64,000 nt of DNA, from assembly GCA_963823665.1 (NCBI GenBank), contig CAWGMQ010000006.1, forward strand, positions 1,664,001-1,728,000, in the 5' to 3' direction. Position 1 is the stretch's first letter; each line of letters opens with the position of its first letter. Below, piece by piece: positions 31,454 through 47,930 of the stretch. Under the pieces are notes generated by a model. That model worked only from the letters and a program-made list of their open reading frames with translations. It had not been told where the DNA came from and searched no databases. The position numbers and the translations under genes are program-made. Source of the DNA: an uncultured Planctomycetota bacterium (GTDB taxonomy: Bacteria > Planctomycetota > Planctomycetia > Isosphaerales > Isosphaeraceae).

Positions 31454-31831
31454 TCTTTTGTACGCGCTCGCCGAGGAATTTTAGCAGTTGCTGTCAGGAA
31501 TCGGACTGCCGACCGACTCAACTGTGCAGCCTTAATTCGTCATCAAGCGTTTCGGCGGCTTCGCCCCGGGATGGTTCGGGTCAACGGCCGTACCGTCCCG
31601 CTCGCCATTTCACCGGCGGGTGCATGATCCGTTTTATCCCGGGCGGTGCGGCCGTCTTCTCTTTCCCAAGATGGAGCCTGCAAGCGCGATTGATCGTACG
31701 AAGTTCGCACCGAAATAGGAGTCGGAGTGGCGTTTTCTCCCATCGCGAATTCGAATGCAGGTTGCGGTCGAGGCAGTCAGTCCACATCGGACGCAATAGG
31801 CAACGGGGTCCAACCCAAGGAGGAACATCCC

Positions 31832-32044
31832 ATGCTCGTTCTCAGTCGCAAGTTTGGCGAACGGATTCTGATACCGCAATTTGAGTTGACGTTCTCCGTG
31901 GTCGGGATCGACGGCAACACGGTGAAGCTCGGGATTACCGCGCCGACGAATGTCAGTGTTTACCGTGAGGAGCTATGGCGCAAGGTCCGTATGCAGCAGG
32001 GCGCGCGCCTGGCTCTTGGTGGCACGGACCCCATATCGACGTGA
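31832..32044 (+). CDS. csrA: Carbon storage regulator CsrA-family protein
   Basis: MLVLSRKFGERILI..VKLGITAP..VYREE. Confidence 0.9.
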   Translation: MLVLSRKFGERILIPQFELTFSVVGIDGNTVKLGITAPTNVSVYREELWRKVRMQQGARLALGGTDPIST

Positions 32045-33783: not shown

Positions 33784-33799
33784 TGGCATGGCCTGTGCA
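33784..33799 (+). promoter_or_regulatory. Putative sigma54 -24/-12 promoter
   Basis: TGGCATG-GCCT-GTGCA (GG-N10-GC) upstream of the Csp gene. Confidence 0.5.
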
Positions 33800-33879: not shown

Positions 33880-34332
33880 ATGATTCGTCGAGAACTGTTC
33901 GGAGCCTTGAGCGTTACAGCCGCCGGGTTGATGGGAGCGATCGGCCGGGTCGCCCAGGCCGGTGACCAGGACCACCACCAGGACGAAGTTCACGAAGGAT
34001 GCCTCAAGAACTGCCAGGCCTGCAAGCGGGAGTGCGACGAGGCGTTCCACTTCTGCGCTTTCGAATTGGCGGAAGGCAAGAAGGAGTATGCCAGGGCCCT
34101 CCACCTGGTCGCCGATTGCGCCGCGTTCTGCGACCTTTCCGCGACGCTCATCGCCCGCCAGAGCCCGCTCATGGTTCACGCTTGCGCGGCCTGCGCAAAG
34201 GCTTGTCAGGACTGTGGGGCCGAATGCGACAAATTCACGGACGCGGCGCTGAAGGAATGCGCCAAAGCCTGCCACGACTGCGAGGCGTCTTGCCGATCAA
34301 TGATCAAGTCGTCGGGCGACCATCATTCTTGA
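33880..34332 (+). CDS. Tat-exported four-helix-bundle copper storage protein (Csp/DUF326)
   Basis: IRRELF signal; repeated CxxxCxxC helices. Confidence 0.88.
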   Translation: MIRRELFGALSVTAAGLMGAIGRVAQAGDQDHHQDEVHEGCLKNCQACKRECDEAFHFCAFELAEGKKEYARALHLVADCAAFCDLSATLIARQSPLMVHACAACAKACQDCGAECDKFTDAALKECAKACHDCEASCRSMIKSSGDHHS

Positions 34333-34355
34333 GACTCAGCGCGGAGGTGGAGACC

Positions 34356-35668
34356 TCAAACCGACGCTTCAATCGCCGGCCGCACTTTGCACCACGCGGC
34401 CTCGATATCGTCCCGATCCAGTTGGCCCAAGATCCTCGTCGCGGCCGCCTCCCTAACCGCGTCCGCCTGAGCCGTGAGCGCCTGCGCGCGGCATCCGTGG
34501 GCATCCGCGGTGTGATTCGCCGGATGGCATCAAGGATCCGGATCAGCACAGCCGGGTTATCCGCGGCGGCTTGGCGTATCTGATCGAACGCCGTCTTGAC
34601 CACTCGCTCGAGCCGAAGCGGAGGCACTCGCACCCGCAGCTTGCCGCGGCCGTCGTACCAGCATCCGTCGCTCAGGGACACATCCGCAACGCAGAGCAGC
34701 GCGTCCGCCACCCAATCGACGCACCCCACACCCGTGAACGTATCGTTGACCGCCGGCGAAAGCGCGCGGATCGCGATCTCGACGATCTGCGCAATGCCGA
34801 ATTCGCAGTCCTGCGCGAGAACGCGGTGTCTTCCGATGCGCACATGTCGCCCGACCAAGCCGTCGAGGTCGGCAAGTCGGTGGGGCGGCCAGACACACGC
34901 GAGTGGCTCGCCACTCAGCACAAACTGCCCCGGTCTATACAGGACGTGAATGACGGTCTCCGTCCGAAGGGCCGCGGCCACCAGGGCCGCGCGGTCGATC
35001 TCCTGAACGTAACCGCTGTGCTTGCACGTGACGGTCTGCCCTTGGCCGATCTGCTGCGCGACGACCTCCGAACGAACGCGCTCGCCGCTTCCCTGGTGAG
35101 GCCCGCGCGCGTGCGCCTGGATCACGGTGGGCCGCATGTCGTCGACGATGCGCGCGATCATGTCCGGATTCTGGAGGGAAGCGGCGATGCGATGGCTGTA
35201 ATAGATCAGGAACCCAAAACTTGCGATCACCAGGAACCAGCTCGTGATGAGAGAAACCTCGGGAATAAAGGTCGAGTGCGAGTCCTGATGGGTCACCAGA
35301 AACACCAGACACAGATAGATGAAAGTGGCCATGAACAGGCCGATGGTGGCCTGCGTGACCCAATCCTGGAGGAATCGATAGAGGAGGCGCGGACCGAATA
35401 GCGTGGCGACCATCGAAAGCACGAGGAGCGCGACGGAGAAGATCAGCGCCAGGACCGTGCTCACGCAACTGAGCATTGCGCTCAGGATGGCGCGCGCGTC
35501 GTCAATGCCACCCATGGTGAACCATTCGGGAAGATGAATGGCACCACGAGCATCCAGGACATCCGGAATCATGGTGAGCCCGAACAAGACGAGGCTCGCC
35601 AGCGAGAATTTCAAAGGGATCCGCCAGAGATTCACGTCTGAGGAGCGACCGACGGGAGCAGAGCGCAC
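34356..35668 (-). CDS. DUF2254 family membrane protein, probable frameshift near 34480
   Basis: ARAILS, FGPRLL, SGYVQ, AIRALSPAVND; AAGGAG RBS before GTG 35668. Confidence 0.8.
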
Positions 35669-35682
35669 CAGGGCGTCTCCTT

Positions 35683-35868
35683 CTATTTGTGGCCGCCGCT
35701 GCGGTGCCGGCACGTGATGAAGCCGTGGTTGTTCCGCCCGCCAGTCTTTTTCAGCGGGGCAGTCAGTCTCTTCTCGGGCTTCTTGTTCTTGTCGGTCAAC
35801 TCGGAAAAATCGCTCACGGACGCGAACCGTCGCCCGGCGCTCGTCGGTTTGTAAAATCGGATGCCCAT
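35683..35868 (-). CDS. rplB: Stand-alone N-terminal 61 aa of 50S ribosomal protein L2 (truncated copy)
   Basis: [34 protein letters not shown] then TAG; no L2 similarity after the stop; no S10-operon neighbours. Confidence 0.85.
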
Positions 35869-35982
35869 CGCGCCGTCTCACTTTCTCGTCTGCCCGGGAC
35901 TCAGCATGACGGACCGGTCCCGGTCGTGATCCAATTCGAACTTGCACGGAGAATCGCGGAGTCCGTATGAACGAATTGCTCG

Positions 35983-36066
35983 CTACCAGCCGCCACCGCT
36001 GGTGAGGAACAGTCGGAGAAAGAGGTCGTGCTCAGAATGAGAGTTGTTGATTTTGAATCTGAGCAT
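35983..36066 (-). CDS. 27-aa peptide MLRFKINNSHSEHDLFLRLFLTSGGGW
   Basis: GAGGT RBS; paralog of 36295..36378 with synonymous differences. Confidence 0.7.
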   Translation of the reverse strand: MLRFKINNSHSEHDLFLRLFLTSGGGW

Positions 36067-36110
36067 GGATACCTCGACGGATGAGGTTCTGACCCTCGAC
36101 CATCCCACGA

Positions 36111-36252
36111 ATTCTATGAATCGCCCTGGCAAGCCGTCAACGAAAATCGCCCTTCGAAGAAATGGCCAGCAGCCTCGAGCCGCGGCTGCCGCCAAATGCG
36201 CGCCGGCCGCCGGCGATTTTCGTTGACATCGCGCGAAGCCGATCGATAAGAT
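36111..36252. promoter_or_regulatory. Mirror-image divergent sigma70 promoters sharing a 16-bp element
   Basis: Minus TTGACG-N18-TAGAAT (36140-36111); plus TTGACA-N18-TAAGAT (36223-36252); perfect IR GTCAACGAAAATCGCC 36136-36151 / 36212-36227. Confidence 0.75.
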
Positions 36253-36294
36253 TCTGCGGAGTCAGTGTTAATCAGACTCGCATCTGAGGATTCG

Positions 36295-36378
36295 ATGCTC
36301 CGACAAACATTCAGCCACATCCGCTCTGAGCACGACCTCTTCATCCGCCTCTTCCTCACCGGCGGCGGCGGCTGGTAA
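36295..36378 (+). CDS. 27-aa peptide MLRQTFSHIRSEHDLFIRLFLTGGGGW
   Basis: GAGGA RBS; paralog of 35983..36066. Confidence 0.7.
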   Translation: MLRQTFSHIRSEHDLFIRLFLTGGGGW

Positions 36379-36653
36379 GTATCGGGCTCCGCGCCCTTTC
36401 GCGTCTTCGCCCCACTCCCTTGCCGGCGCGCGCGACTCGATGCGCCGCAAACACCCGGTCTGCGCGCGCACCGTCGTGACCAATCGCCTCATCAGGCACT
36501 TCGCAAGCATGCAAAACGCGTCGGGGCGATCGTGCGAGTTGCAGCGATTTTCGGGCAAATCGCACGGGTTTGTCCCCGGTGAGCCCGCCTTGACTTTCGA
36601 GTAAATCCGTAAAGTATCCCCGCGCAATCACATCCGAGTTATCACAATACGTT

Positions 36654-36669
36654 TGGCACAACGAATGCA
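36654..36669 (+). promoter_or_regulatory. Putative sigma54 promoter
   Basis: TGGCACA-ACGA-ATGCA (GG-N10-GC) about 45 nt upstream of 36715. Confidence 0.6.
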
Positions 36670-36714
36670 TGATTCGACCTCGGGTGCGAAGGATTCCCAG
36701 AAAGGATATCAACC

Positions 36715-37179
36715 ATGCTCAGACGATTTTCTCTTGTTGTTGTGACCGCCGCATGCTTGCCCGCCGCAAGCGGGTGCGGCAATTCCGCCGGCCTTGTTCC
36801 GGTCTCGGGAAAGGTGTCGTACAAGGGCGATCCGGCCGCGGGTGCGGTCGTTTACTTCCAGCGCGCCGATAGCCATCCCTCCTCGCACGAGCTTGTGCCG
36901 TTCGGGGTCGTGCAGAAAGACGGGGGCTTTTCGCTCTCTTCTGAGGGGCTCGGATCGGGCGCGCCGCCCGGAAGCTACAACGTCTTGATCGAGTGGAGAG
37001 ATGGAACAGAAAACGGTGTGGTCCCCGTCAAGGGCAAACCAAACCTCGTAAAACGCACTCGCATCCACGCCGGCCCGGACAGGCTGGGTGGGCGATATTT
37101 CAACGTCAGCAAGCCGCTGCTCACGGCCGAGGTCAAACCCGGGTCGAACCCACTTCTGGCGTTCGAGCTCAAGGACTGA
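36715..37179 (+). CDS. Planctomycete lipoprotein (carboxypeptidase regulatory-like domain), DUF1559 companion
   Basis: Lipobox ASGC; PVSGKVSYKG.P..GA.V.F; GAPPGSY.V. Confidence 0.8.
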   Translation: MLRRFSLVVVTAACLPAASGCGNSAGLVPVSGKVSYKGDPAAGAVVYFQRADSHPSSHELVPFGVVQKDGGFSLSSEGLGSGAPPGSYNVLIEWRDGTENGVVPVKGKPNLVKRTRIHAGPDRLGGRYFNVSKPLLTAEVKPGSNPLLAFELKD

Positions 37180-37268
37180 CCGGAGCAACAACTGAATACT
37201 GTGGCGCCGTGTGGGCGCCAAAGCTCAAGCGAAGCGAAGAATTGCATCTTTGAATTGGAGAAACGCCA

Positions 37269-38417
37269 ATGAATGGACTGCGTCGTTCGATTAAACCCCG
37301 TGGGTTCACTTTGATCGAGCTCCTGGTCGTGATCTCGATCATCGCCGTGCTGATCGCTCTCTTGCTGCCGGCTGTACAAGCGGCGCGTGAGTCTGCGCGG
37401 CGATCGCAGTGCATCAACAACTTGAAGCAGATCGGGTTGGCCACGCTCAACTTCGAAACCACTTACGGCGCGTTGCCTTCGGACAGCCCCAGACTTGCGG
37501 TCCCTGACCCGAACGCCGATGCCCAGGCCGCGATTCCCACAATCACATGCTCGTACCTGACCCAGATTCTGCCTTTCATGGATCAGTCGGTGATCTACAA
37601 TCAGATCAACCTGCTTCAGGCCGCCTCCGATACCGCCAACATCCCGCCGTGCACGGGCCCCGGGGCTCTGCACTCGGGCAATAACTCGGCGTACTCGCAG
37701 GCGATCAGCGTGTTCCTGTGTCCGTCGTCGCCAGGGCCGGCGACGATCAATTACTACAACGCGTTCTGGGGCCCGTATGGCGACGGCGGCGGCGACACCT
37801 GCACGCCTGGATCGCCGGCTCCAATCGGCGGAGTGACAAACCTCAATCCGCCCCCCACGCAGATCTGGGGGAGAACTGACTACTTCCCGATCCCGGGGCT
37901 CCACAACACGGCCCTTCTGGCCGCGGGAATGAGTGCCACTTACATCGCCGCGGTGGGCGAAGGCAAAGACTCGGGCACGCTGACCAATCCCCTGATCACC
38001 GGCAAGATCCGCATGGCTTCGATCACCGACGGCAGCTCGAACACCATGATGGTTTCCGAATGCGGCTCGAAGCCGATCGGTTACAACGGATTCCGCCAGA
38101 TTTATCTGTCGGAAGTCAACGGCCTGCCCGTCGACGGCGTGATCGAGCCCGTCTCGAGCGCTGGCGGCGCCTGGGCCGACAATTTCACCTACTCGAGCCT
38201 GGCCGGTGCGCAGGGGCGCTTGACCGGAGTTCGAGGCGGCACGTGCATGGTGAACTGCACCAGCAACAACGAGATCTACGCGTTCCATCCCGGCGGTGCG
38301 AACGGCTTGTTTGTCGATGGGTCTGTCCATTTTCTCAAGGACACCTCGTCGGTTCCCTTCATCGCCGCGCTCGTGACCCGCGCCGGCGGCGAGATGATCA
38401 GCAGCGACCAGTATTGA
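37269..38417 (+). CDS. DUF1559 prepilin-type N-terminal cleavage/methylation protein
   Basis: [48 protein letters not shown]. Confidence 0.95.
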
Positions 38418-38522
38418 TCTGATCCGGTCGCAGCGAATCCGTGACGCTTGAGCGCCTTTGCGGCGAGCGCCGACGCGAGTCGGCCCGCCGCAAGGGCGTG
38501 CTTCCCCTATCGCTAACGACAG

Positions 38523-40592
38523 ATGAGACAAAACTCCAGCACCTCCGCGCTCTTCATCGTGTTCTGCACGATCGTCGTCGGCCCCGGTTGCAGCCGGCAA
38601 GACATCGAGCCCTCGCCGCCGGTTCAGCCGGTGAGCGCCGAACGAGTTGAGCTCGATTTTCTGCTCGCAAACGAATCCGTTCGCGCCAAGACCCACAAGA
38701 CGCAATCACGCCCCGCGCCCGATTTCGCCCGGGACGTTGCGCCGCTTTTGGAGAAATACTGCGTGAGCTGCCACGATGCGGCCGGAGCTGAGGGTGGCGT
38801 CATCCTCGAAAACATCTCAACCCGACCGCACGAAAAGCTCACGCCGCTCTTGAAACGCGTGGTAGAGAATCTGCGATCCGAAAGCATGCCGCCCGAGGGA
38901 GAGCCGCGTCCCGACGCGATGGAGCTCGAGATCATCTGCTCCTGGATCGACGGCGCGACCACGAAGCTCGATCACGGTCCCGGCCATCACGCGCCGCGGC
39001 GTCTCAATCGGGCTCAATACAACAACACGATCCGCGACCTGATCGGCCTCGACCTGCGACCGGCCGACGAGTTTCCCTCGGACGACGTCGGATACGGATT
39101 TGACAACATCGGCGACGTGCTATCGACCTCCCCGATCCTGATCGAGATGTATCTCGCCGCCGCCGAAAAGGTGATCGATGTGGCGTTTCAGTCGCCCGAG
39201 CCGCGAGCGAGGATCCTGAATCCCTCCGCCGATTTCATGCCGCTCGCCTTCCGGCGATACACCCCGCCCGTGCGAGCGCCGCGCGATTACAAGGTGCTCC
39301 GGACCGCTCCGGTAACTGCCGATCCCGAGATCCAGCGCCAGCAGCACATCTACAACATCCTGCGGGCGTTCGCCGATCGAGCTTATCGGCGGCCGGCCAC
39401 GCACGACGAGCTCACCCGTCTGCTCGGCATCGTGATCTCGGCCGAAAAGGACGGCGAGACGCAGGATCGCGCCCTCCGGCTCGCACTCGAGGCGGTGCTG
39501 TCCTCACCTCATTTTCTCTTCATCGGCGCGGGTGTGGCGCAGGATGCCGCCCCCGCTGAGCGCGCTTCGCCGCAACACGACTTTGATCTCGCCGTTCGTC
39601 TTTCCTATTTCCTGTGGAGCAGCATGCCCGACGACGAGCTTCTTCGCCTGGCGAGCCAGGGAGCCCTGCGCCGCCCAGGTGCGCTGGAAGCTCAGGTGAA
39701 GCGGATGCTCGGCGATCGCCGGTCTCGAGCCTTGGCCGAGCAGTTTGCCGGCCAGTGGCTGCAAATTCGAAAGCTCGCGACGTTCGAGCCGGACCGAAAG
39801 CTCTTCCCCGAGTTCGACTCGTCACTGAAGGACGCAATGCTCGAGGAAGCGACGCTCTTCTTCGAGTCGATCGTACAAGAAGATAGGACCGTGCTCGATT
39901 TTCTGGAGGCGGATTACACCTTCGTGAGCGGCCGTCTGGCTCGGCACTACGGGATCGCCGGCGTCGAGGGCGAGGCATTTCGCCGCGTCTCGCTCAAAGG
40001 TACGGCTCGCGGCGGCGTGATCACGATGGCGAGCGTACTTGCGGCGACCTCGAGCGCCACGCGGACCTCACCGGTCAAACGCGGCCGTTGGATTCTCGAC
40101 AACATTCTGGGAGCACCTCCCTCGCCGCCGCCGGCCGGCGTGGAAGCGCTCAAGGAAACCCGTGGCCCCGCGGGGACGCTCCGACAGCAACTGGAGCAGC
40201 ACCGGAGCAATCCCGACTGCGCCTCCTGTCATCGGCGGATGGATCCCCTGGGGTTCGCGCTCGAGAACTTTGATTCGCTCGGAAGTTGGCGGGAAAAAGA
40301 GTCGGGCCAGAGCATCGATGCGGAGGGCCGTTTGCCCGGGGGCCGGGCGTTCCGCGGGCCGTCGGGTCTCCGAACGGCCCTGTCGCTTCGCCGTGATGCA
40401 TTCGCCCGCTGCCTGGCCGAGAAGATGCTCACATTCGCGCTGGGCCGCGGAGTCGAGGCGGCGGAAAGCCCCGCGGTGGAGCAGATCGTGCATCGCCTGA
40501 AGCGCAATAACTATCGGTTTTCCGCGCTGGTCCTGGGCATCGTCGAAAGCGAGCCATTCTCGAACGGGTCAAGCCAGGCCGAGGGGCCATGA
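38523..40592 (+). CDS. DUF1592/DUF1588 (PSD, planctomycete cytochrome c) protein
   Basis: CVSCH, MPP, RRLNRAQYNNT, RLSYFLWSSMPD, TSPVKRG, CASCH. Confidence 0.9.
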   Translation: MRQNSSTSALFIVFCTIVVGPGCSRQDIEPSPPVQPVSAERVELDFLLANESVRAKTHKTQSRPAPDFARDVAPLLEKYCVSCHDAAGAEGGVILENISTRPHEKLTPLLKRVVENLRSESMPPEGEPRPDAMELEIICSWIDGATTKLDHGPGHHAPRRLNRAQYNNTIRDLIGLDLRPADEFPSDDVGYGFDNIGDVLSTSPILIEMYLAAAEKVIDVAFQSPEPRARILNPSADFMPLAFRRYTPPVRAPRDYKVLRTAPVTADPEIQRQQHIYNILRAFADRAYRRPATHDELTRLLGIVISAEKDGETQDRALRLALEAVLSSPHFLFIGAGVAQDAAPAERASPQHDFDLAVRLSYFLWSSMPDDELLRLASQGALRRPGALEAQVKRMLGDRRSRALAEQFAGQWLQIRKLATFEPDRKLFPEFDSSLKDAMLEEATLFFESIVQEDRTVLDFLEADYTFVSGRLARHYGIAGVEGEAFRRVSLKGTARGGVITMASVLAATSSATRTSPVKRGRWILDNILGAPPSPPPAGVEALKETRGPAGTLRQQLEQHRSNPDCASCHRRMDPLGFALENFDSLGSWREKESGQSIDAEGRLPGGRAFRGPSGLRTALSLRRDAFARCLAEKMLTFALGRGVEAAESPAVEQIVHRLKRNNYRFSALVLGIVESEPFSNGSSQAEGP

Positions 40593-40593
40593 T

Positions 40594-41940
40594 ATGAATA
40601 AACACCGTAGAATCTCACGACGAACCATCCTGCGGGGCATCGGCGCGTCGCTGGCCTTGCCGCTCCTCGAAGTGATGGAAGACCGTAGCGCCCGCGCGAG
40701 CTCCGCTCACGGCGGCAAGCCGCCCGTGCGGATGGCATTCCTGTACGTTCCCAATGGAGTGCACATGCCGGCGTGGACGCCGCGCGCGGAAGGCAAGGAC
40801 TTCGATCTGCCGCCGATCCTGGAACCGCTCTCCGCCGTCAAGAATGAAATCCTTGTCCTGAGTGGGCTCACCTTGAATCCGGCTCGCGCGCTCGGTGACG
40901 GCGGCGGCGACCACGCTCGGGCCATGGCCAGCTTCTTGACGGGCTGTCACCCACGGAAGACCGGCGGCGCCGATCTGTGCGCGGGGGTCTCGGTCGATCA
41001 GGTCGCTGCGCAGCGACTGGGCCACCTGACCCGGTTTCCGTCGCTCGAGATCGGCTGTGAGGGAGGGCAGAACGGCGGCGAGTGCGACCACGGCTATAGC
41101 TGTGCGTACCAGTCGAACCTGGCGTGGCGCAGCGAACGGGCGCCGCTTGCAAAGCAGGTCAATCCCCGGTTGTTGTTCGACCGGCTCTTTGGTGCTCCGG
41201 CCGAAAACGAGAGCGCGCAAGCCCGTGCCCGGACCGCTCGGCGGCAGAAGAGCGTTCTCGACTTCGTCCTGGAAGAGACCCGGCGCCTCACGCAGGATCT
41301 CGGCGTTGCAGACCGCCGCAAGCTGGATGAGTACCTGACCAGCGTTCGCGAGGTCGAGCGGCGGATCTCGATTGCCTCGCCCGTGTTCGACCATGGTGGA
41401 TCGGCTCATCAGCGGCCGCTCGGAATTCCTGCCGACATCGAAGAACACTTACGCGTGATGAGTGATCTCCTGGTACTGGCGTTTCAGGCCGATCTCACGC
41501 GAATCGCGACGTTCGTCTTCGCCAACGACGGCAGCAACCGGAGCTACCCCGCGATCGACGTTCGCGACGGCCATCACGACCTGTCGCACCACGGCGGCGA
41601 CGCCGCCAAGGAAACGAAAATCCTTGCGATCAACCGGTTCCATGTCGCCCAGCTCGCGTATCTCTTCGGCAAGCTGAAGTCGACTCGGGAGGGAGATGGT
41701 TCACTGCTCGATCACTCGATGATCGTCTACGGCAGCGGCATCAGTGACGGCAACTCGCACCGCCACGACAACTTGCCGATTCTGCTCTCGGGCCGTGCCG
41801 CAGGCACGATCAAGACGGGCCGGCACATTCGCTGCGCGGCGGAGACGCCACTCTGCAATCTCTATGTATCGATGCTCAATCGCATCGGAGTCGATGCAAC
41901 GGCGTTCGGCGACAGCACCGGCGATCTGGGTGCTCTGTAG
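40594..41940 (+). CDS. DUF1552 family protein (Tat signal)
   Basis: ISRRTILRG..LPLLE, YVPNG, SVDQ, HHDLSHH. Confidence 0.9.
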   Translation: MNKHRRISRRTILRGIGASLALPLLEVMEDRSARASSAHGGKPPVRMAFLYVPNGVHMPAWTPRAEGKDFDLPPILEPLSAVKNEILVLSGLTLNPARALGDGGGDHARAMASFLTGCHPRKTGGADLCAGVSVDQVAAQRLGHLTRFPSLEIGCEGGQNGGECDHGYSCAYQSNLAWRSERAPLAKQVNPRLLFDRLFGAPAENESAQARARTARRQKSVLDFVLEETRRLTQDLGVADRRKLDEYLTSVREVERRISIASPVFDHGGSAHQRPLGIPADIEEHLRVMSDLLVLAFQADLTRIATFVFANDGSNRSYPAIDVRDGHHDLSHHGGDAAKETKILAINRFHVAQLAYLFGKLKSTREGDGSLLDHSMIVYGSGISDGNSHRHDNLPILLSGRAAGTIKTGRHIRCAAETPLCNLYVSMLNRIGVDATAFGDSTGDLGAL

Positions 41941-42170: not shown

Positions 42171-43302
42171 TCACACATCCGCGATCAGAATATCCAGCCC
42201 TTCAGCCTGGCGCTCGAGCCGGTTCAAGATCGAGCCATTCAACTGCTTGTACCACGGCTGACGGCTCTTGCCGACCACGATGATCTTGATCGCGTATTCG
42301 TGGGCAAACGCCAGCATGGTGCTCGCGACGTCCGGCCCGCGGAACGTCATGGGGATTCCGCCGAGCTGCTGCGCCAGCTCGAGATTCTTGCGAGAGCAGC
42401 CGCTGCGTGGCCGCGTCGATGCGCGTCAGGTCTTCAAGCGGCGTCTGAATGTACACGGCATACCACGGCACATTCAGCCGGTCGGCGATCCGCGCAGTCT
42501 TTCGCAAGAGCGCGGGCGCATTCGGGCTGCGGCTCGAAATGCCAACCATGACGCGGTCCGTCGCCGAGAGCGGAAACTGGTCGGCCTCGGCCCGCCGCGT
42601 CCGGCGGTCGATCAAGTGGGCAATCTCCGTCAGCGTGATCTCGCGTAGCCGCGTCAGATTCGAAGGCGTGAAGAAATTCTCGAGCGCCGCATTGATCCGG
42701 TCGGGTGGATAAACCTTGCCGGTGTTGAGCCGTTCGATCAAGTCTTCGACGGAGATGTCCACGTTGACGATCTGGTCGGCCTCGGCAAGCACGCGGTCCG
42801 GAATGCGCTCCTTCACCCGCACGTTGGTCACGCGCTCGATCTCGTCGTACAGACTTTCGAGATGCTGAACGTTCACAGTTGTGATCACATGAATGCCCGC
42901 ATGAAGCAGGTCTTCGACGTCCTGAAATCGCTTGGGATGGCGCGAGCCGGGTGCGTTGGTGTGGGCCAGCTCGTCGACCAGGCACACCGTCGGCCGCCGG
43001 ACGATGATCGCGTCGACATCCATTTCGCGGAGGGTCACGCCGCGATACTCGACCACGCGTGGAGGAATGATCTCGAGGTCACCGATCTGTTCCGCCGTCT
43101 CGCGGCGCCCGTGCGTCTCGACCAGGCCGATCACCGCGTCGACGCCCTGCGACTTGAGACGATGGCCTTCCCGGAGCATCGCATAGGTCTTGCCCGTGCC
43201 GGCCGCCGAGCCCAGGTAAACCTTGAGCCGTCCCCGCGTCTGCCGGCGGATCAAGCTCAGGAACTGCTCGGGAGTCGGTCGATGAGTCTCCGTGGAGGGC
43301 AT
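42171..43302 (-). CDS. kdpD: KdpD N-terminal sensor + USP domain protein (no kinase domain), frameshift near 42390
   Basis: GRLKVYLGSAAGTGKTYAML, LVDELAHTN, NVQHLESL; ends ..GLDILIADV*. Confidence 0.88.
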
Positions 43303-43359
43303 GGAATTGGACCTCGGCTCCTTCGTCAATCATGAAAGAATATGGATCGGAAAACGCCC

Positions 43360-43911
43360 CTACTTGTCCAGCTCCAGGTTGAGCAGCAGCACGTTCACTC
43401 GAGCGGGGGCGCCGATGATCGTGCCCGATCGGTTCGTCATCTTCTCGATCAGCGTTCGCACAACCTCGATCGAGAGCCCGCGCGCCTTCGCAACGCGAGG
43501 CGCCTGGAAAAAAGCCGTCTCCAGACTGATGTCCGGATCGAGACCCGAGCCCGACGCCGTGACCAGGTCCAAGGGCGCCGGCTGACTGACGGTTGCCTCG
43601 AGAGCCTGAACCCTGGCCACGACCGCCGTGCGCAGATCCGCGTTGTTGGTGCCAAGGTTCGACCCTCCGGCCGCGTCTGCCTTGTAGTCGACCGCAGACG
43701 GCCGCGGCCGGAAGTACCGCGCCGAGACGAACCGCTGCGCGATCAGCTCTGACCCGATCACCGTTCGCCCGTCCGGCGCGTAAATCAGGCTTCCATCCGC
43801 CTGCGAGGGAAACAATAGCTGCGCCACCCCCCAGACCGCCGCCGGGTAGACGATCGCACAGAGAAGAAAGGTAAGGATGCAGGCTTTGAGTGCTTTCATG
43901 TAAATTGTCAT
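43360..43911 (-). CDS. kdpC: K+-transporting ATPase subunit C
   Basis: QADGSL, GSELIAQ, RPSA, TASGSGLDPDIS, VNVLLLN. Confidence 0.95.
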   Translation of the reverse strand: MTIYMKALKACILTFLLCAIVYPAAVWGVAQLLFPSQADGSLIYAPDGRTVIGSELIAQRFVSARYFRPRPSAVDYKADAAGGSNLGTNNADLRTAVVARVQALEATVSQPAPLDLVTASGSGLDPDISLETAFFQAPRVAKARGLSIEVVRTLIEKMTNRSGTIIGAPARVNVLLLNLELDK

Positions 43912-43935
43912 CTGTTAGTTGTCAGGTGTTAGTTG

Positions 43936-46070
43936 TCATTTGATGACCATTGTCAGGATCGGGTCGATCATCAGGTCGATCAGCTTGATTCCGATGAAGG
44001 GCGCGATGACTCCGCCCAGGCCGTAGAAGAGCATGTTCCGGCGCAAGAGGCGCTGGCGCCGACCGGGCGGTACGTCACTCCCTTGAGCGCGATCGGGATG
44101 AGTAGCGGGATGATGATCGCGTTGAATATCACGGCAGAGAGGATCGCCGACTGCGGGCCGCCCTCGGTCGCGAGGCCCATCAAGTCGATTGCCCGCAGGA
44201 ACGCGAGCGATTCGAAGCCGACGAACATCGCCGGAATCACGGCGAAGTACTTGGCGAGGTCGTTGGCGATGGAAAAGGTCGTGAGCGCTCCGCGGGTCAT
44301 GAGCAGTTGCTTGCCGATCTCGACGACTTCGATGAGCTTGGTCGGGTCGCTGTCCAGGTCGACCATGTTGCCGGCTTCCTTGGCAGCCTGAGTGCCCGAG
44401 TTCATGGCCACGCCGATATCGGCCTGAGCCAGCGCAGGGGCGTCGTTGGTGCCGTCGCCCATCATGGCGACGAGCTTGCCGCCGGTCTGCTCCTTGCGGA
44501 TATAGGCAAGCTTCGCCTCGGGCGTGGCCTGGGCGATGAAGTCGTCGACGCCCGCCTCGTCGGCGATCGCCTTGGCGGTCAGCGGGTTATCGCCCGTCAC
44601 CATCACCACGCGCAGCCCCATCTGCCTGAGCCGGGCGAACCGTTCGCGAATGCCCTGCTTCAAGATGTCTTCCAGCTTGATCAGCCCGACGATCTTCTCG
44701 TCGCTCACCACGGCGAGCGGCGTTGCGCCCTTCGAGGCGATGGCGTCGACCGTCTCCTGGTAGCCGTCGGGAATGGTTCCGCGCATCTCCTCCACGGCCC
44801 GCGCGATCGTGTTCGGCGCCCCCTTGCGGATCCGGCATCCGCCGGGAATATCGATGCCGCTCATCCGGGTCTGGGCCGTGAACTCGACGAACCGGCTGCC
44901 GTCGGGAGCTTCCAGCTCCAGGGTGAACTCACGTCGCGCCAGCTCGACAATGCTCTTGCCTTCCGGCGTGGTGTCGGCCAGCGAGGCCATCGCGGCCAGC
45001 CGCGCCAGCTCCCGCTCGTTCGTGCCCTGTAGCGGCACGAACGCAGTCGCGCGGCGATTGCCAAGCGTGATCGTGCCGGTCTTGTCGAGCAGCAGCGTGT
45101 CCACATCGCCGGCAACCTCGACGGCCTTGCCGCTCTTGGCGATCAGGTTTGCCGCCAGCGCTCGATCCATCCCCGCGATCCCGATCGCCGCGAGCAAAGC
45201 ACCAATGGTCGTGGGGATCAAACACACCAGAAGTGCGATGAGCGTGGGGATGTCCAGGCTGATCGCAAAGTACCGGGCCATGGGATACAGCGTGGCGGTG
45301 ACGATCAGGAAGATGATCGAGAATGCAGCAAGGATGATCGTCAGCGCGATTTCATTCGGCGTCTTCTGCCGCGACGCCCCTTCAACCAGGGCGATCATCC
45401 GGTCCAGGAAGCTTTCGCCGGCCCCGGCGGTCACCTCCACAACAATGCGATCGGAGAGCACCCGCGTTCCGCCCGTCACGCCCGACCGGTCGCCGCCGGC
45501 CTCGCGAATCACCGGCGCGCTCTCGCCGGTAATCGCCGACTCATCGACCGAGGCCACGCCGATGACGATGTCGCCGTCAGCCGGAATGATCTGACCGGCC
45601 TCGACCACGACGCGGTCGCCCGGCTTCAGCTCCGTCGACGAAACCTCGATCGTCTCGCCCGAGCTATCCAGCCGAAACGCCAGCGTGTCCTGACGAGTCG
45701 CCCGCAGGCTCTGTGCCTGCGCTTTACCCCGAGCCTCGGCGAGTGCCTCCGCGAAATTGGCGAAGAGCACCGTGAGCAGCAGCAAGAACGCCAGCGCCGC
45801 CTGATAAAGGATCAGCCCCGTGCCGGCCCCCGACACGATCGACTCGATTGTCACAAGCGTGGTCAAGATCCACCCGGCCTCGACCAGGAACATCACCGGG
45901 TTTCTTGCCATGTTCCGAGGGTCGAGCATCACGAACGATCGGATCGTCGCCATCTTCACCAGTGCCGGCTCGAACAGCCGCAGCCGGCGGGTATGACGGC
46001 GATTCAGCTTGAGTGCCTGAGAATCGATCGGAGGCGGCGCGGGAAGCTGAGTCGGAGTGAGAAGCGACAT
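43936..46070 (-). CDS. kdpB: K+-transporting ATPase subunit B, frameshift near 44050
   Basis: [24 protein letters not shown]. Confidence 0.95.
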
Positions 46071-46150
46071 TGGCAGTGAGTTTCCTGGCGGACAAGATCG
46101 AGATCGAATTCCGATGATAACGTCGATCGCGCCGCAGTGCGGCACACGGA

Positions 46151-46179
46151 GCATTCCGACGCAGAGCGTCGGAACGAGG
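46151..46179 (-). repeat. REP-like palindrome
   Basis: Minus strand CCTCGTTCCGACGC-TCT-GCGTCGGAATGC; family copy at 57475-57503. Confidence 0.65.
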
Positions 46180-46187
46180 AAAAAACA

Positions 46188-47930
46188 TCACGGCGGTGCG
46201 GACGTTGCCGAAAGATGGTCGGCGATCGGGCCCAGGACCACCGCGGGCATGAACGAGAGCGCACCAACCAGGAGCACGGTTCCCAGCAGCATTGCGGCAA
46301 AGGTGAGGTCGTTCGTCATCAGTGTTCCCGTCGTCGTCGGAGTGCGTTTCTTCTCGGCCAGGAAACCCGCGATGGCCAGGGGCAGCACCAGCGCGGGAAA
46401 TCTGCCCAGCAGCAGGACGACGCCCGTGGCGATGTTCCAGGCGGGGTTGTTGTCGGATAGACCTTCAAATCCCGACCCGTTGTTCGCCGCGGCCGAGGTG
46501 AACTCGTAGAGCACCTCGCTGAATCCATGCGGGCCGGGGTTGGCCACCGTCTTCTGGCCCCAGTCGGTCGCCGCGAAGAGCGCCGTGCCGCAGGTGATCA
46601 GGATCGGGTGGATCAACACGACGATCATCGCCAGCTTCACCTCCCGGGCCTCGATCTTCTTGCCCAGGTACTCCGGAGTTCGCCCGACCATGAGCCCGGC
46701 CAGAAACACGGCAACGATCACATACATGAGCATGTTCAGGAAACCCGCTCCGATGCCGCTGAAGTCGACGTTGAGCATCATGAGCGACATCGGCACCAGC
46801 CCCCCCAGGGGCTGGAAGCTGTCGTGCATCGCGTTCACCGAGCCGTTCGACGTGGCGGTCGTGATGGCTGACCACGTGGCCGATGGCACTGGCCCGATCC
46901 GCACCTCCTTTCCCTCGAGATTACCAACTCCGCGCACGGGCAGGCCGGCCGTGGCTGCGCTCGGCTGCAGCTCGGCCCCGATTGCGATCGCCGCCCCGGC
47001 CAGCAAGAGCGCCAGCATCACACCAAAAATGACGATCGCTTGCGCCTTGTCCTTGATCAAGATACCGAACATCACGATTGCGGCCATCGGGATGATGATG
47101 ATCGAGACCACCTCGAACAGGTTGCTCCAGGGGCTCGGGTTCTCGAACGGATGAGTCGAGTTCGGCCCGAAGAAGCCGCCGCCGTTGGTGCCAAGCTGCT
47201 TGATCGCCACTGCGGACGCGACCGGCCCCACGGCGATCGATTGCGTGCCCCGCTCGACCGTGCTCGCTTTGACCGCACCTCCGAAGGTCATCGGCACACC
47301 GGTCGCAACCAGGGCGATCGCCAGGATCGCTGAAAGGGGCAAGAGCACGAGCGTGATCCCCCGGATCGTGTCCAGGTAGAAATCCCCGAGAACCCGCTCG
47401 CCGCGCAGGCCACGAATCACCGCCAGCATCACGGCCAACCCACAGGCCGGCGTGACGATTTGCAGCCACACGATCGCGCCAAGCTGGCTGAAATACGAGA
47501 GATGCTGCTCGCCCGAGTAATGCTGGAGGTTGGTGTTGGTGACAAACGAGCAGACTGTGTTGAAGATGACGGCGGTGTCGGCCCCGGCGTGTTCGACCCC
47601 CGCCGCGTCCTTGTACCCAAGCGCGGTGAGCGCGCCCTTGTGGTCCGGGTTGAGCAGCGGAAGATAGCTCTGCAAGAGCAGGATGCCGAACGAGATCGCG
47701 AAGAGCGCCATGTTGAAAGCCAGCAGCGCGAGCGCGTACTGCTTCCAGCCCATCTTGATCGGCTCGCGATGACCGATCAGTCGCAAGAGCGCGAGCGGAA
47801 TCGCGTCGACCCCCTTGCCGACACGCGCCGGCTCGGGATCGAGAGCCCTCGCCATCCACCAGCCCAAGGGCAGCGAGCCTGCAATCGGTAGCCCGATCGC
47901 CCAGAAGGGATGCACAAGCCCGAAATCCAA
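46188..47930 (-). CDS. kdpA: K+-transporting ATPase subunit A
   Basis: FVTNTNLQHY, LGTNGGG, SNGSVNAMHDS, NNGSGF. Confidence 0.96.
   Translation of the reverse strand: MDFGLVHPFWAIGLPIAGSLPLGWWMARALDPEPARVGKGVDAIPLALLRLIGHREPIKMGWKQYALALLAFNMALFAISFGILLLQSYLPLLNPDHKGALTALGYKDAAGVEHAGADTAVIFNTVCSFVTNTNLQHYSGEQHLSYFSQLGAIVWLQIVTPACGLAVMLAVIRGLRGERVLGDFYLDTIRGITLVLLPLSAILAIALVATGVPMTFGGAVKASTVERGTQSIAVGPVASAVAIKQLGTNGGGFFGPNSTHPFENPSPWSNLFEVVSIIIIPMAAIVMFGILIKDKAQAIVIFGVMLALLLAGAAIAIGAELQPSAATAGLPVRGVGNLEGKEVRIGPVPSATWSAITTATSNGSVNAMHDSFQPLGGLVPMSLMMLNVDFSGIGAGFLNMLMYVIVAVFLAGLMVGRTPEYLGKKIEAREVKLAMIVVLIHPILITCGTALFAATDWGQKTVANPGPHGFSEVLYEFTSAAANNGSGFEGLSDNNPAWNIATGVVLLLGRFPALVLPLAIAGFLAEKKRTPTTTGTLMTNDLTFAAMLLGTVLLVGALSFMPAVVLGPIADHLSATSAPP

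Follow-up and report, generated by a model that had tools for sequence, protein, structure and literature searches.

What do two 27-codon open reading frames (ORFs), set head to head in a planctomycete genome, contribute to the genes around them? Both lie in the stretch of DNA analyzed in the present study (the window), 64,000 nucleotides from an uncultured member of the Isosphaeraceae (GenBank assembly GCA_963823665.1, contig CAWGMQ010000006.1, positions 1,664,001 to 1,728,000). A sequence-only reading of the window had proposed a new small protein, a leader or ribosome-arrest peptide, or a RiPP precursor. The leader/ribosome-arrest option was the best fit among these candidates. Judging from the sequence comparisons below, we consider it probable (roughly 0.63) that each ORF is a translated leader peptide (an upstream ORF, uORF), likely controlling the genes that follow it in cis. 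A translation-based genetic switch is the most likely function because the tiny gene is conserved and is stationed ahead of other genes. The elements of the locus are as follows (window coordinates).

35983 to 36066, minus strand: uORF of 27 codons, the 'S' form of subtype A, ending in SEHDLFLRLFLTSGGGW-TAG
36072 to 36075, minus strand: Shine-Dalgarno sequence GAGG, with the ATG 5 nt further on
36111 to 36151, minus strand: promoter of the minus uORF, GGCGATTTTCGTTGAC, 18-nt spacer, TAGAAT (10 of 12 positions)
36212 to 36252, plus strand: promoter of the plus uORF, GGCGATTTTCGTTGAC (with the -35 hexamer inside it), 18-nt spacer, TAAGAT (10 of 12 positions)
36286 to 36289, plus strand: Shine-Dalgarno sequence GAGG, with the ATG 5 nt further on
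36295 to 36378, plus strand: uORF of 27 codons, the 'G' form of subtype A, ending in SEHDLFIRLFLTGGGGW-TAA

The minus frame (36066 to 35983) translates as MLRFKINNSHSEHDLFLRLFLTSGGGW and the plus frame (36295 to 36378) as MLRQTFSHIRSEHDLFIRLFLTGGGGW, each followed by a stop codon. Both frames and their GAGG sites were where the sequence-only reading had placed them, and a GAGG-type site also precedes the uORF in most subtype-A copies. The divergent TTGAC-N18-TA..AT promoters that it had described were also found, one per uORF (TTGACA-18-TAAGAT at 36223-36252 on the plus strand and TTGACG-18-TAGAAT at 36140-36111 on the minus strand). They are the only two sigma70-like promoters in 35500-36900, where shuffled sequences predict 0.3. 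The same 16-bp element, GGCGATTTTCGTTGAC, stands at the head of each promoter as the perfect inverted repeat reported earlier (36212-36227, plus; 36151-36136, minus), and it is kept in subtype-A copies from other genera. A promoter-like site lies just upstream in both window copies and in the subtype-A copies inspected; among copies from outside the window's family, TAGAAT or TACAAT ends 7 nt before the ATG in 4 of 19. Elsewhere in the genome, only three sites resemble the 15-nt element GCGATTTTCRTTGAC, each with one mismatch; a promoter regulon built on it was rejected, all three sites apparently lying inside long ORFs.

The peptide is not confined to this locus. Its family gave 48 matches in 34 of the 121 genomes of the window's taxonomic family, covering 20 of 53 genera, and a contig scan limited to a single genome of each species yielded 60 loci, part of them in other planctomycete orders. 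One of these 60, with a subtype-B uORF, precedes the CPA2 antiporter gene of the culturable Singulisphaera acidiphila. No third copy was found at the DNA or peptide level in the 16.46-Mb genome that contains the window. The sequence-only reading had made its case depend on homologues with a conserved frame elsewhere; such homologues occur in many genomes, and this objection therefore falls away. It had also recognized no family, and the databases agreed: Pfam and NCBIfam returned no family (E up to 10) and no known arrest motif or arrest-peptide family, and Rfam returned no match over the uORFs or window positions 35000-37500 (E up to 10). When the 42-residue stop-to-stop frame was compared with 5.8 billion proteins, 10 extended versions were found to be annotated, all unnamed. 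A literature search, including the strings NGGGW and GGGGW, found no account of the peptide. These comparisons suggest that it most likely represents a conserved planctomycete family so far undescribed.

Selection acts on the amino acids. In the last 17 codons, the window pair differ at 4 of 12.5 synonymous sites and 2 of 38.5 non-synonymous sites, in line with the synonymous divergence and few substitutions remarked on previously. Across relatives, pN/pS over these codons is 0.09 in subtype A, to which the window copies belong (23 sequences), and 0.22 in subtype B (18 sequences), values to be read with the caution that the copies share descent, so that counts and p-values overstate independence. 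The purifying selection that had been proposed was borne out and is strong over these residues. The first 10 codons vary freely, and the conserved C-terminal core reads E-x-x-L-[FY]-[LI]-[RK]-L-F-[LI]-T-x-G-G-G-W. Five positions (L, F, G, G and W) never vary among the 61 unique cores, and a run of three to four Gly codons plus Trp closes every copy. Length is nearly fixed: of 65 copies, 47 have 27 codons and 11 have 26. Among the same copies, TGA (32), TAG (21) and TAA (12) all serve as stop codons, and the stop comes directly after Trp in all but two of 67 apparently intact copies; two loci, L139 and L158, have extra codons beyond Trp. Two copies without an identified downstream gene are altered, L037 by F>C and W>R changes and L098 by loss of the stop.

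These patterns bear on the view that the conserved element is non-coding (a structured RNA, or a DNA palindrome recognized by a regulator) and that the ORFs arise only incidentally. The module in the window is an imperfect palindrome (67% identity over 394 nt), the start-codon region can pair with the Ser-Glu-His codons over at least 7 bp in 18 of 25 subtype-A copies, and all but one of the 61 unique cores encode Phe-7 with TTC, which hints at an additional RNA-level constraint. However, variable columns fall at codon positions 1, 2 and 3 in 9, 8 and 16 of 17 cases, respectively, the cores switch between Leu and between Arg codon families (e.g., CTC/TTG and CGC/AGG), and pN/pS is low in both subtypes. 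Frame, start, length and stop are maintained across four orders, whereas the palindrome is confined to the window's genome. Besides the lack of an Rfam match, the fold stability of the whole leaders was not above that of shuffled sequences (z -0.18 for plus and -1.46 for minus). We regard a non-coding origin as highly improbable.

The locus had further been described as a mirror-image module. The mirrored sequence is real (the arms, 35984-36075 and 36286-36377, are 76% complementary), but its reading as a single unit was not supported, each copy being nearer to copies of other genera. The plus copy is closest to locus L029 of another genus (78% from the promoter to +80), which has the same kind of operon downstream. 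The minus copy is closest to L069 (73%) and L030 (70%), which lie in other genera ahead of DUF2254 genes, while the two mirror partners share 62% with each other. The head-to-head layout was found in no other genome among the 121 of the window's family. At the orthologous locus of a genome of the same genus (G001), neither uORF copy is present; a promoter equal to that of the minus uORF there drives a full-length ribosomal protein L2 paralogue directly, without a uORF, and the plus-side operon is retained with its promoter, though without both uORFs. Judging from these comparisons, the mirror layout reflects the head-to-head placement of two paralogous cassettes of old origin and is not a functional palindrome. 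A motif, CGG(A/G)CTCCGCG, had been reported after both stops; it is present there in the window, but copies in other genomes lack it at that place. An element similar to it was observed approximately 65-70 nt downstream in one class of copies.

The following features lie downstream of the two uORFs in the window.

34304 to 35668, minus strand: DUF2254 membrane protein gene (PF10011, E 9.5e-93), candidate target of the minus uORF
35683 to 35868, minus strand: N-terminal fragment of a ribosomal protein L2 paralogue, 61 codons (TIGR01171 positions 1-58 of 275, E 8e-15)
36531 to 36566, plus strand: palindrome GTGCGAGTTGCA-N12-GCAAATCGCACG, candidate enhancer-binding-protein site, a conserved block in 13 loci
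36654 to 36669, plus strand: sigma54-like -24/-12 site TGGCACAACGAATGCA, with the lipoprotein gene 46 nt further on
36715 to 41940, plus strand: downstream operon of the plus uORF, comprising the four genes below
36715 to 37179, plus strand: lipoprotein gene, first in the operon
37269 to 38417, plus strand: DUF1559/N-methyl gene, second
38523 to 40592, plus strand: DUF1587/1592/1595/1588/1585 gene, third
40594 to 41940, plus strand: DUF1552 gene, fourth

On the minus side, the L2 fragment, the equivalent of which is full-length in G001, sits between the uORF and the DUF2254 gene. We read the start of the latter as GTG at 35668, 14 nt past the stop of the L2 fragment and preceded by AAGGAG, a choice based on likeness to L036, L069 and L030 and on reading of the sequence. 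On the plus side, the operon may be independent of the uORF transcript because the palindrome and the sigma54-like promoter intervene. The window contains two matches to sigma54-like sites against 0.33 expected; the GG-N10-GC of this site is conserved in 12 of 13 loci, and rpoN is present. A search of titles and abstracts found no functional study of DUF2254, and nothing was found on DUF6653, which recurs among relatives.

In the set from the window's family, a co-oriented ORF follows 45 of 46 copies according to ORF calls, one of these being a transposase gene. The classes that recur across genera are lipoprotein-DUF1559-PSD (13), small membrane protein (8) and DUF2254 (4); transporters comprise Na_H_Exchanger (10), CBS-NhaA (3), CBS-MgtE (1) and RND (1), and DUF6653 was found twice. 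Among the 20 loci assessed in other orders, the neighbors included exchangers (5 Na_Ca_ex, 2 Na_H_Exchanger, 1 NhaA and 1 Na_H_antiport_3), 6 sucrose-phosphate-synthase-like GT4 genes, 2 of which are followed by a sucrose-phosphate-phosphatase-like gene, and 1 GpgS-like/HAD fusion. In the sister subtypes, the genes that follow the uORF encode exchangers of the Na+/H+ and Na+/Ca2+ types and enzymes for sucrose- or glucosylglycerate-type synthesis. The next gene after the uORF encodes the small membrane protein (105-118 residues) in 8 loci of the family set and approximately 6 more in other orders, and a protein atlas placed this protein only in clusters of hypothetical proteins. In an Rfam search of 10 relatives' loci, the nhaA-I riboswitch matched once, beside a locus from another order and 1.7 kb from its uORF.

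These neighbors argue against two other explanations. If the leader sensed charged tRNA-Gly or tRNA-Trp, as in amino-acid attenuation of the trpL/hisL type, the closing Gly and Trp codons of every copy would be accounted for. However, genes for Gly or Trp biosynthesis, transport or tRNA charging were found downstream of no copy in the family set or other orders, the other 12 conserved residues would be left without explanation, and only 5 of 46 uORFs have a canonical terminator-like site after them. We rejected this reading because matching neighbor genes are absent, and consider it very unlikely. The same absence led us to reject the proposed RiPP precursor or pheromone, a peptide that would be modified and exported. 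The shortness and conservation of the peptide and its C-terminal Trp would suit such a role, and a B12-binding radical-SAM gene lies 2.4 kb downstream at L072; however, this is the only radical-SAM gene near the 46 family-set copies, none was found at the 20 loci of other orders, and in neither set of loci do the copies have a conserved modifying enzyme, protease or exporter beside them. With ion transporters and osmolyte enzymes as the neighbors, we think a RiPP extremely unlikely.

A protein that acts in trans deserves more weight. Such a protein, encoded by the first gene of an operon, might bind the small membrane protein, the transporters or a regulator. Its amino-acid sequence would be under selection, as found, and the 105-118-residue membrane protein could be a dedicated partner; moreover, the operon of the plus class owns a sigma54-like promoter, and G001 has kept the neighboring genes without any copy of the uORF. 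However, a protein working in trans would not need the up to three diverged copies per genome, each ahead of a different gene class. Within its 27 residues, the peptide lacks a hydrophobic stretch that could cross a membrane as a helix. Its N-terminal third varies, its C-terminus is invariant right up to the stop and its length is fixed, a combination better suited to a chain resident in the ribosomal tunnel. We therefore judge a trans-acting protein to be rather unlikely.

We favor the cis-acting leader peptide, which may operate as follows. Each uORF would lie at the 5' end of its own transcript. Its C-terminal 17 residues, with the stop adjoining them, are the part that selection preserves, and these residues would lie in the ribosomal exit tunnel once the ribosome arrives at the stop. 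Under some condition, the nascent peptide may slow or block termination, and the stalled ribosome would alter the fate of the RNA behind it. The route that we favor is that the stalled ribosome would mask a C-rich, G-poor tract straddling the stop, on which Rho would otherwise load; alternatively, stalling may alter the local RNA folding. The tracts in the window are as follows.

36379 to 36440, plus strand: C-rich, G-poor tract directly 3' of the stop, a possible Rho loading site
35903 to 35982, minus strand: tract after the stop of the minus uORF, weakly C-rich (C=24 and G=21 in 80 nt)

In the plus copy, +1 to +80 after the stop contains 36 C and 22 G. C exceeds G in +1 to +40 in 44 of 45 copies from the window's family versus 122 of 271 ordinary gene stops, and after the stop in 14 of 19 copies outside this family, where the bias is weaker; the tract is also short, which tells against the Rho route. 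The genome encodes Rho, and no canonical terminator-like site was found between either window uORF and the regulatory region of the next gene. The Gly/Trp codons paired with the C-rich tract no better than with a shuffled tract (mean z -0.08; 11.0 vs 11.8 paired bases), giving no sign of a specific hairpin. In an RNAalifold analysis of eight leaders of the small-membrane-protein class, GCGGCUGGU paired with a downstream ACCGGCUGC element. However, folds of single sequences instead made ACCGGCUGC a strong local hairpin ahead of the ribosome site, and forcing the stop region open in the eight leaders left Shine-Dalgarno accessibility unchanged. The attenuator-switch model is thus unsupported by the folds because ACCGGCUGC folds locally and opening the stop region changes nothing; a kinetic version of it could still apply.

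Known leaders offer parallels for these steps. Like arrest peptides that work at termination (TnaC, SpeFL and PepNL type), the planctomycete ORF is a co-oriented 5' uORF with amino-acid selection at a C-terminus abutting the stop. Translation of MgtL, the leader of mgtA in Salmonella and E. coli, reports an ionic condition through Rho-dependent termination ahead of a cation transporter gene; it depends on proline and works together with a Mg2+-sensing RNA. The planctomycete peptide likewise precedes cation transporter genes, whereas MgtL is shorter and has no sequence likeness to it. In TnaC, a C-rich tract by the stop (the rut region) is shielded from Rho by the stalled ribosome, and by analogy the tract beside the planctomycete stop could also be masked. 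Both peptides have conserved residues spread through the C-terminal part and a proposed action at the stop codon. According to the account in PMC8429421, TnaC is the leader of the E. coli tna operon, a short uORF at the 5' end of its transcript with 24 residues, compared with 27 here. The two have no sequence likeness: TnaC ends in Pro rather than Gly-Gly-Gly-Trp and precedes tryptophanase rather than ion transporter or osmolyte genes, and the planctomycete uORFs use all three stops. In PepNL and other termination-arrest peptides, as described in PMC11890864, the nascent chain blocks the release factor at the stop, which affects the downstream gene, and an external inducer is not strictly required. 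The same source describes PepNL as a 14-residue peptide that forms a mini-hairpin and is linked to UGA read-through by Trp-tRNA, whereas the planctomycete peptide is twice as long and has a variable stop codon.

Among possible signals, ionic or salt stress is the foremost candidate because the targets of the sister subtypes are Na+ exchangers and genes for the synthesis of sugar osmolytes. The Na+ riboswitch (DUF1646 motif; PMC9337991) and the Li+ riboswitch (nhaA-I; PMC9646797) are described in these reports as structured ion-binding RNAs with similar targets, namely, kefB/napA-like Na+/H+ antiporters, cation transporters and osmotic-stress genes. In planctomycetes, in contrast, the conserved entity is a coding frame without a match to an Rfam model. 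We tentatively entertain the possibility, for which the odds are against us, that the peptide, with the core E-x-x-L-[FY]-L-[RK]-L-F-I-T-N-G-G-G-W, is a ribosome-based sensor of the ionic state. Depending on cytoplasmic Na+/K+ or ionic strength, the nascent chain would either stall at the stop or be released, which would switch on Na+ exporters, Na+/Ca2+ exchangers and sucrose or glucosylglycerate synthesis across Planctomycetia. In Isosphaeraceae, the subtype found in the window would then have come to serve additional genes, one of them for an alternative ribosomal protein L2.

To our knowledge, almost no gene-regulation mechanisms have been described in Planctomycetota. The present study identified an 84-nt ORF that gene callers overlooked, and the candidate leader is small and easily tested. 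A Gly-Gly-Gly-Trp-stop ending would be a new sequence class on the short list of nascent peptides that act on the ribosome. If the trans-acting reading is true, the finding would instead be a new small protein tied to ion transporters. The account in PMC9337991 gives only one protein (NhaR) and one riboswitch class as validated sodium-responsive regulators. A leader that marks Na+/H+ and Na+/Ca2+ exchangers and osmolyte genes is a candidate third route of the sodium response, and the peptide, if it senses ions, would be the counterpart of the Na+ riboswitch.

The window contains two divergent 27-codon upstream ORFs (uORFs), each with its own promoter:

36295-36378, plus strand: plus-copy uORF
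36066-35983, minus strand: minus-copy uORF

Both translations given by the sequence-only reading were exactly reproduced. GAGG is located 5 nt ahead of the ATG in both ORFs, and each is preceded by a sigma70-like promoter matching at 10 of 12 positions. No other sigma70-like site is present in 35500-36900 (shuffles gave 0.3), and the 16-bp string GGCGATTTTCGTTGAC is part of both promoters, forming a perfect inverted repeat. The observation holds and is far beyond what chance would give.

The two cassettes jointly form a 394-nt imperfect palindrome with 67% identity. However, this "mirror-image module" does not look like a palindromic device. The window copies are 62% identical to each other, whereas the plus copy is 78% identical, from the promoter to +80, to L029, a copy from another genus that precedes the same operon, and the identity of the minus copy to copies ahead of DUF2254 genes is 73% (L069) and 70% (L030). 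DNA- and peptide-level searches of the 16.46-Mb genome did not detect a third copy. Another genome, G014, has two tandem copies 2.4 kb apart, and the head-to-head arrangement was absent from all other genomes with copies. Because the window copies are nearer to other-genus copies than to each other and this layout occurs in no other genome, we conclude that the palindrome represents two old paralogous promoter-leader cassettes that ended up back to back.

A peptide-profile search of the Isosphaeraceae yielded 48 matches, with 34 of 121 genomes and 20 of 53 genera represented (10 of the 47 genomes at least 90% complete had a match). They comprise 45 apparently intact copies, one cut by a contig end, and two degenerate copies, L037 (Phe to Cys and Trp to Arg) and L098 (without a stop after Trp). 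One additional copy (G295) was found among 400 sampled other genomes of the phylum. When a pattern scan was run on one genome per species, 60 loci were confirmed; among the 26 examined, 4 repeat known loci and 22 are new, with record titles of Pirellulales, Planctomycetaceae/Planctomicrobium, a Gemmataceae MAG, and unclassified Planctomycetota. The remaining loci are titled Isosphaeraceae, Singulisphaera, Paludisphaera, and Tundrisphaera. Because the copies share common descent, the counts do not represent independent events. Planctomycete-type peptides were also present in records titled Alphaproteobacteria and Deltaproteobacteria (L117 and L159; a Na_Ca_ex gene follows the ORF in L159), the bins of which are probably mislabelled. 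As the sequence-only reading stated, the peptide has no recognised family: Pfam and NCBIfam contain none, Rfam has nothing at the uORF site, and a set of 5.8 billion predicted proteins includes only 10 annotated versions, each extended at the N terminus and either unnamed or called "hypothetical". We conclude that these 27-codon leader ORFs constitute a new, unannotated family that is widely conserved in Planctomycetia.

The purifying selection proposed for the peptide was borne out. Both window copies belong to subtype A, the consensus of which is SEHDLFIRLFLT[GS]GGGW; that of subtype B is [ST][EQ][HN][EA]L[YF]L[RK]LFITNGGGW. In the last 17 codons, 9, 8, and 16 of 17 columns are variable at codon positions 1, 2, and 3, respectively, and pN/pS is 0.09 across the 23 unique sequences of subtype A and 0.22 across the 18 of subtype B; codons 1-10 diverge freely. 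Leu and Arg are preserved across codon-family switches (e.g., CTC/TTG and CGC/AGG), and, counting back from the terminal Trp, L-8, F-7, G-2, G-1, and W0 are invariant in 61/61 unique cores. Of 65 copies, 47 have 27 codons and 11 have 26, with all three stop codons in use. The stop directly follows Trp in 65 of 67 apparently intact copies (exceptions, L139 and L158).

The Phe-7 codon (window 36352-36354, plus; 36009-36007, minus) is TTC in 60/61 unique cores. In lower-GC orders, it is TTC in 19/19, whereas Phe at -11 is TTT in 5/9, which hints at a constraint on RNA or decoding beyond the amino acid. Furthermore, in 18 of 25 subtype A copies, base pairing of at least 7 bp is possible between the start-codon region UGCUCAGA and the Ser-Glu-His codons UCUGAGCA, with some two-sided changes (TCC with GG); this pairing spans 8 bp in the window minus copy (36064-36027) and 5 bp in the plus copy.

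We estimate a probability of roughly 60% that the uORF is a leader of the regulatory or arrest type, acting in cis; a small protein acting in trans is a serious rival, albeit an unlikely one. The cis-acting leader is the best reading because the ORF comes first in the transcription unit, right behind a promoter-like site, and because a single genome can carry up to three diverged copies, each ahead of a different gene class. Four of the 19 non-family copies have TAGAAT or TACAAT ending 7 nt ahead of the ATG, suggesting leaderless mRNAs. This reading is also favored because conservation lies in the C-terminal 17 residues up to the stop and overall length is fixed. TnaC and SpeFL are nascent chains that act inside the exit tunnel at termination, and the pattern observed here is theirs and that of PepNL. 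According to excerpts of PMC11890864, the PepNL nascent chain acts at termination from inside the exit tunnel.

Two further reasons for the cis-acting leader are the rarity of canonical terminators, which are located behind 5 of 46 uORFs, and the C-rich sequence around the stop in a genome that encodes Rho. Positions +1 to +40 are C-rich and G-poor in 44/45 family copies (means of 17.1 C and 9.5 G) vs 122/271 ordinary gene stops at the same loci, and the 3' half of the uORF is C-rich in 45/45. In the tna operon, a ribosome held at the stop masks the Rho-loading tract; by analogy, a ribosome held at the uORF stop could mask the C-rich tract from Rho. However, the tract is weaker outside the family (14/19 copies; 2 ties) and weak behind the window minus copy, and fold models of the leaders show no switch. 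A pairing proposed by RNAalifold was outcompeted by a local hairpin.

The plus-class operon also limits the cis-acting reading. Two features lie between the uORF and the lipoprotein gene:

36531-36566, plus strand: palindrome TGCGAnTTGCA-N10-12-GCAAnnCGCA, from the 13-locus alignment
36654-36669, plus strand: sigma54-type site, conserved GG-N10-GC

The palindrome is common to 13/13 plus-class loci, and the sigma54-type promoter with a strong ribosome site is present in 12/13. Since this conserved promoter lies behind the uORF, the lipoprotein operon would have its own promoter, which speaks against a cis-acting leader. The genome contains rpoN, and the arrangement suggests that the lipoprotein-DUF1559-PSD-DUF1552 operon (PSD, DUF1587/1592/1595/1588/1585 gene) of many genera is under an enhancer-binding protein. 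In the same-genus genome G001, 657 nt with both uORFs are replaced by 172 nt, and the operon, palindrome, and sigma54 site are retained at 87% identity; this apparent loss also speaks against the cis-acting reading.

Three other features were noted nearby:

33784-33799, plus strand: TGGCAY-N6-TGCW sigma54-like match, the only other one in the window, ahead of the next gene
33880-34332, plus strand: Csp1-family (copper-storage-like) Cys-rich four-helix-bundle gene (TIGR04401, E 1.7e-9, below the cut-off)
31727-32044, plus strand: CsrA-family gene (PF02599, E 5.8e-17), 4 kb from the module

Behind the minus uORF, 61 codons remain from the N-terminal part of a ribosomal protein L2 paralogue (window 35683-35868, minus); the stop of this remnant is 14 nt ahead of the DUF2254 start. 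At the same place, G001 has a full-length L2 paralogue without a uORF, directly under the same GGCGATTTTCATTGAC-N18-ATAGAAT promoter (L109). Full-length paralogues also occur in uORF-led operons of two other genera (L032:6325-7242 and L072:2731-3657). Canonical rplB is encoded elsewhere in the window's genome (G000:C3:1492765-1493590, minus) as two adjacent pieces in separate open frames (model positions 1-138 and 138-274), which may reflect a frameshift or assembly error.

ORF calls place a co-oriented ORF behind 45 of 46 family-set copies, and gene classes recur across genera.

Genes downstream of the uORF in the family set (45 intact Isosphaeraceae copies and G295)
Lipoprotein-DUF1559-PSD operon: 13 copies, including the window plus copy
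Na_H_Exchanger, CPA2-like: 10
SMP (105-118-aa membrane protein of no known family), then a response-regulator/TPR gene, L2 paralogue, or Na+/H+ antiporter: 8
DUF2254: 4, including the window minus copy
CBS-NhaA: 3
DUF6653, then Na_Ca_ex or glycosyltransferase: 2 (L099 read by eye, with an in-frame stop)
Unknown protein of ~135 aa: 2
CBS-MgtE: 1
HlyD and AcrB pump: 1
Transposase: 1
No gene identified: 1 (L035)

SMP has a conserved GEPAT motif and is the gene most often found first behind the uORF, across several orders (L032:5202-5534, L072:4553-4885, L154:702-1040, L158:2568-2951, L160:646-999, and others). Pfam and NCBIfam contain no family for it, and its protein atlas matches are "hypothetical" clusters alone. 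The uORF stop and SMP start are 113-132 nt apart at 8/8 family-set loci.

Downstream genes were assessable at 20 of the 22 new loci in other orders.

Genes downstream of the uORF in other orders
Sucrose-phosphate-synthase-like GT4: 6 loci, two with a sucrose-phosphate-phosphatase-like gene next (all matches under curated cut-offs; names family-level only)
Na_Ca_ex: 5, two behind an SMP gene
SMP or SMP-like with other or no further identified genes: 4
Na_H_Exchanger: 2, one behind an SMP gene
NhaA: 1
Na_H_antiport_3: 1
Glucosyl-3-phosphoglycerate-synthase (GpgS)-like/HAD fusion: 1

Mannosylglucosylglycerate is made via GpgS. Excerpts of PMC3694870 and PMC3736172 list sucrose and mannosylglucosylglycerate as osmolytes of the planctomycete Rhodopirellula baltica. 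At L147, from a Pirellulales MAG, an nhaA-I (Li+) riboswitch (4250-4298, plus; 49.2 bits vs a gathering score of 37) is located directly behind the uORF-led GpgS-like/HAD gene, ahead of the next gene. Because the targets of the sister subtypes are Na+ exchangers and sucrose/GpgS-like osmolyte genes, we conclude that, judged by gene content, these subtypes mark a set typical of sodium and osmotic stress. This set resembles the list for Na+ riboswitches in the excerpted text of PMC9337991. In the window, kdpD (N-terminal domain), kdpC, kdpB, and kdpA (42202-47930, minus), a K+-uptake system, are convergent to the uORF-led operon and next to this possible ion-stress leader. The sodium and osmotic link comes from the sister subtypes and would be an extrapolation for the window's own subtype, the targets of which are a DUF2254 gene and the lipoprotein operon; for the family, an ionic or salt signal is plausible.
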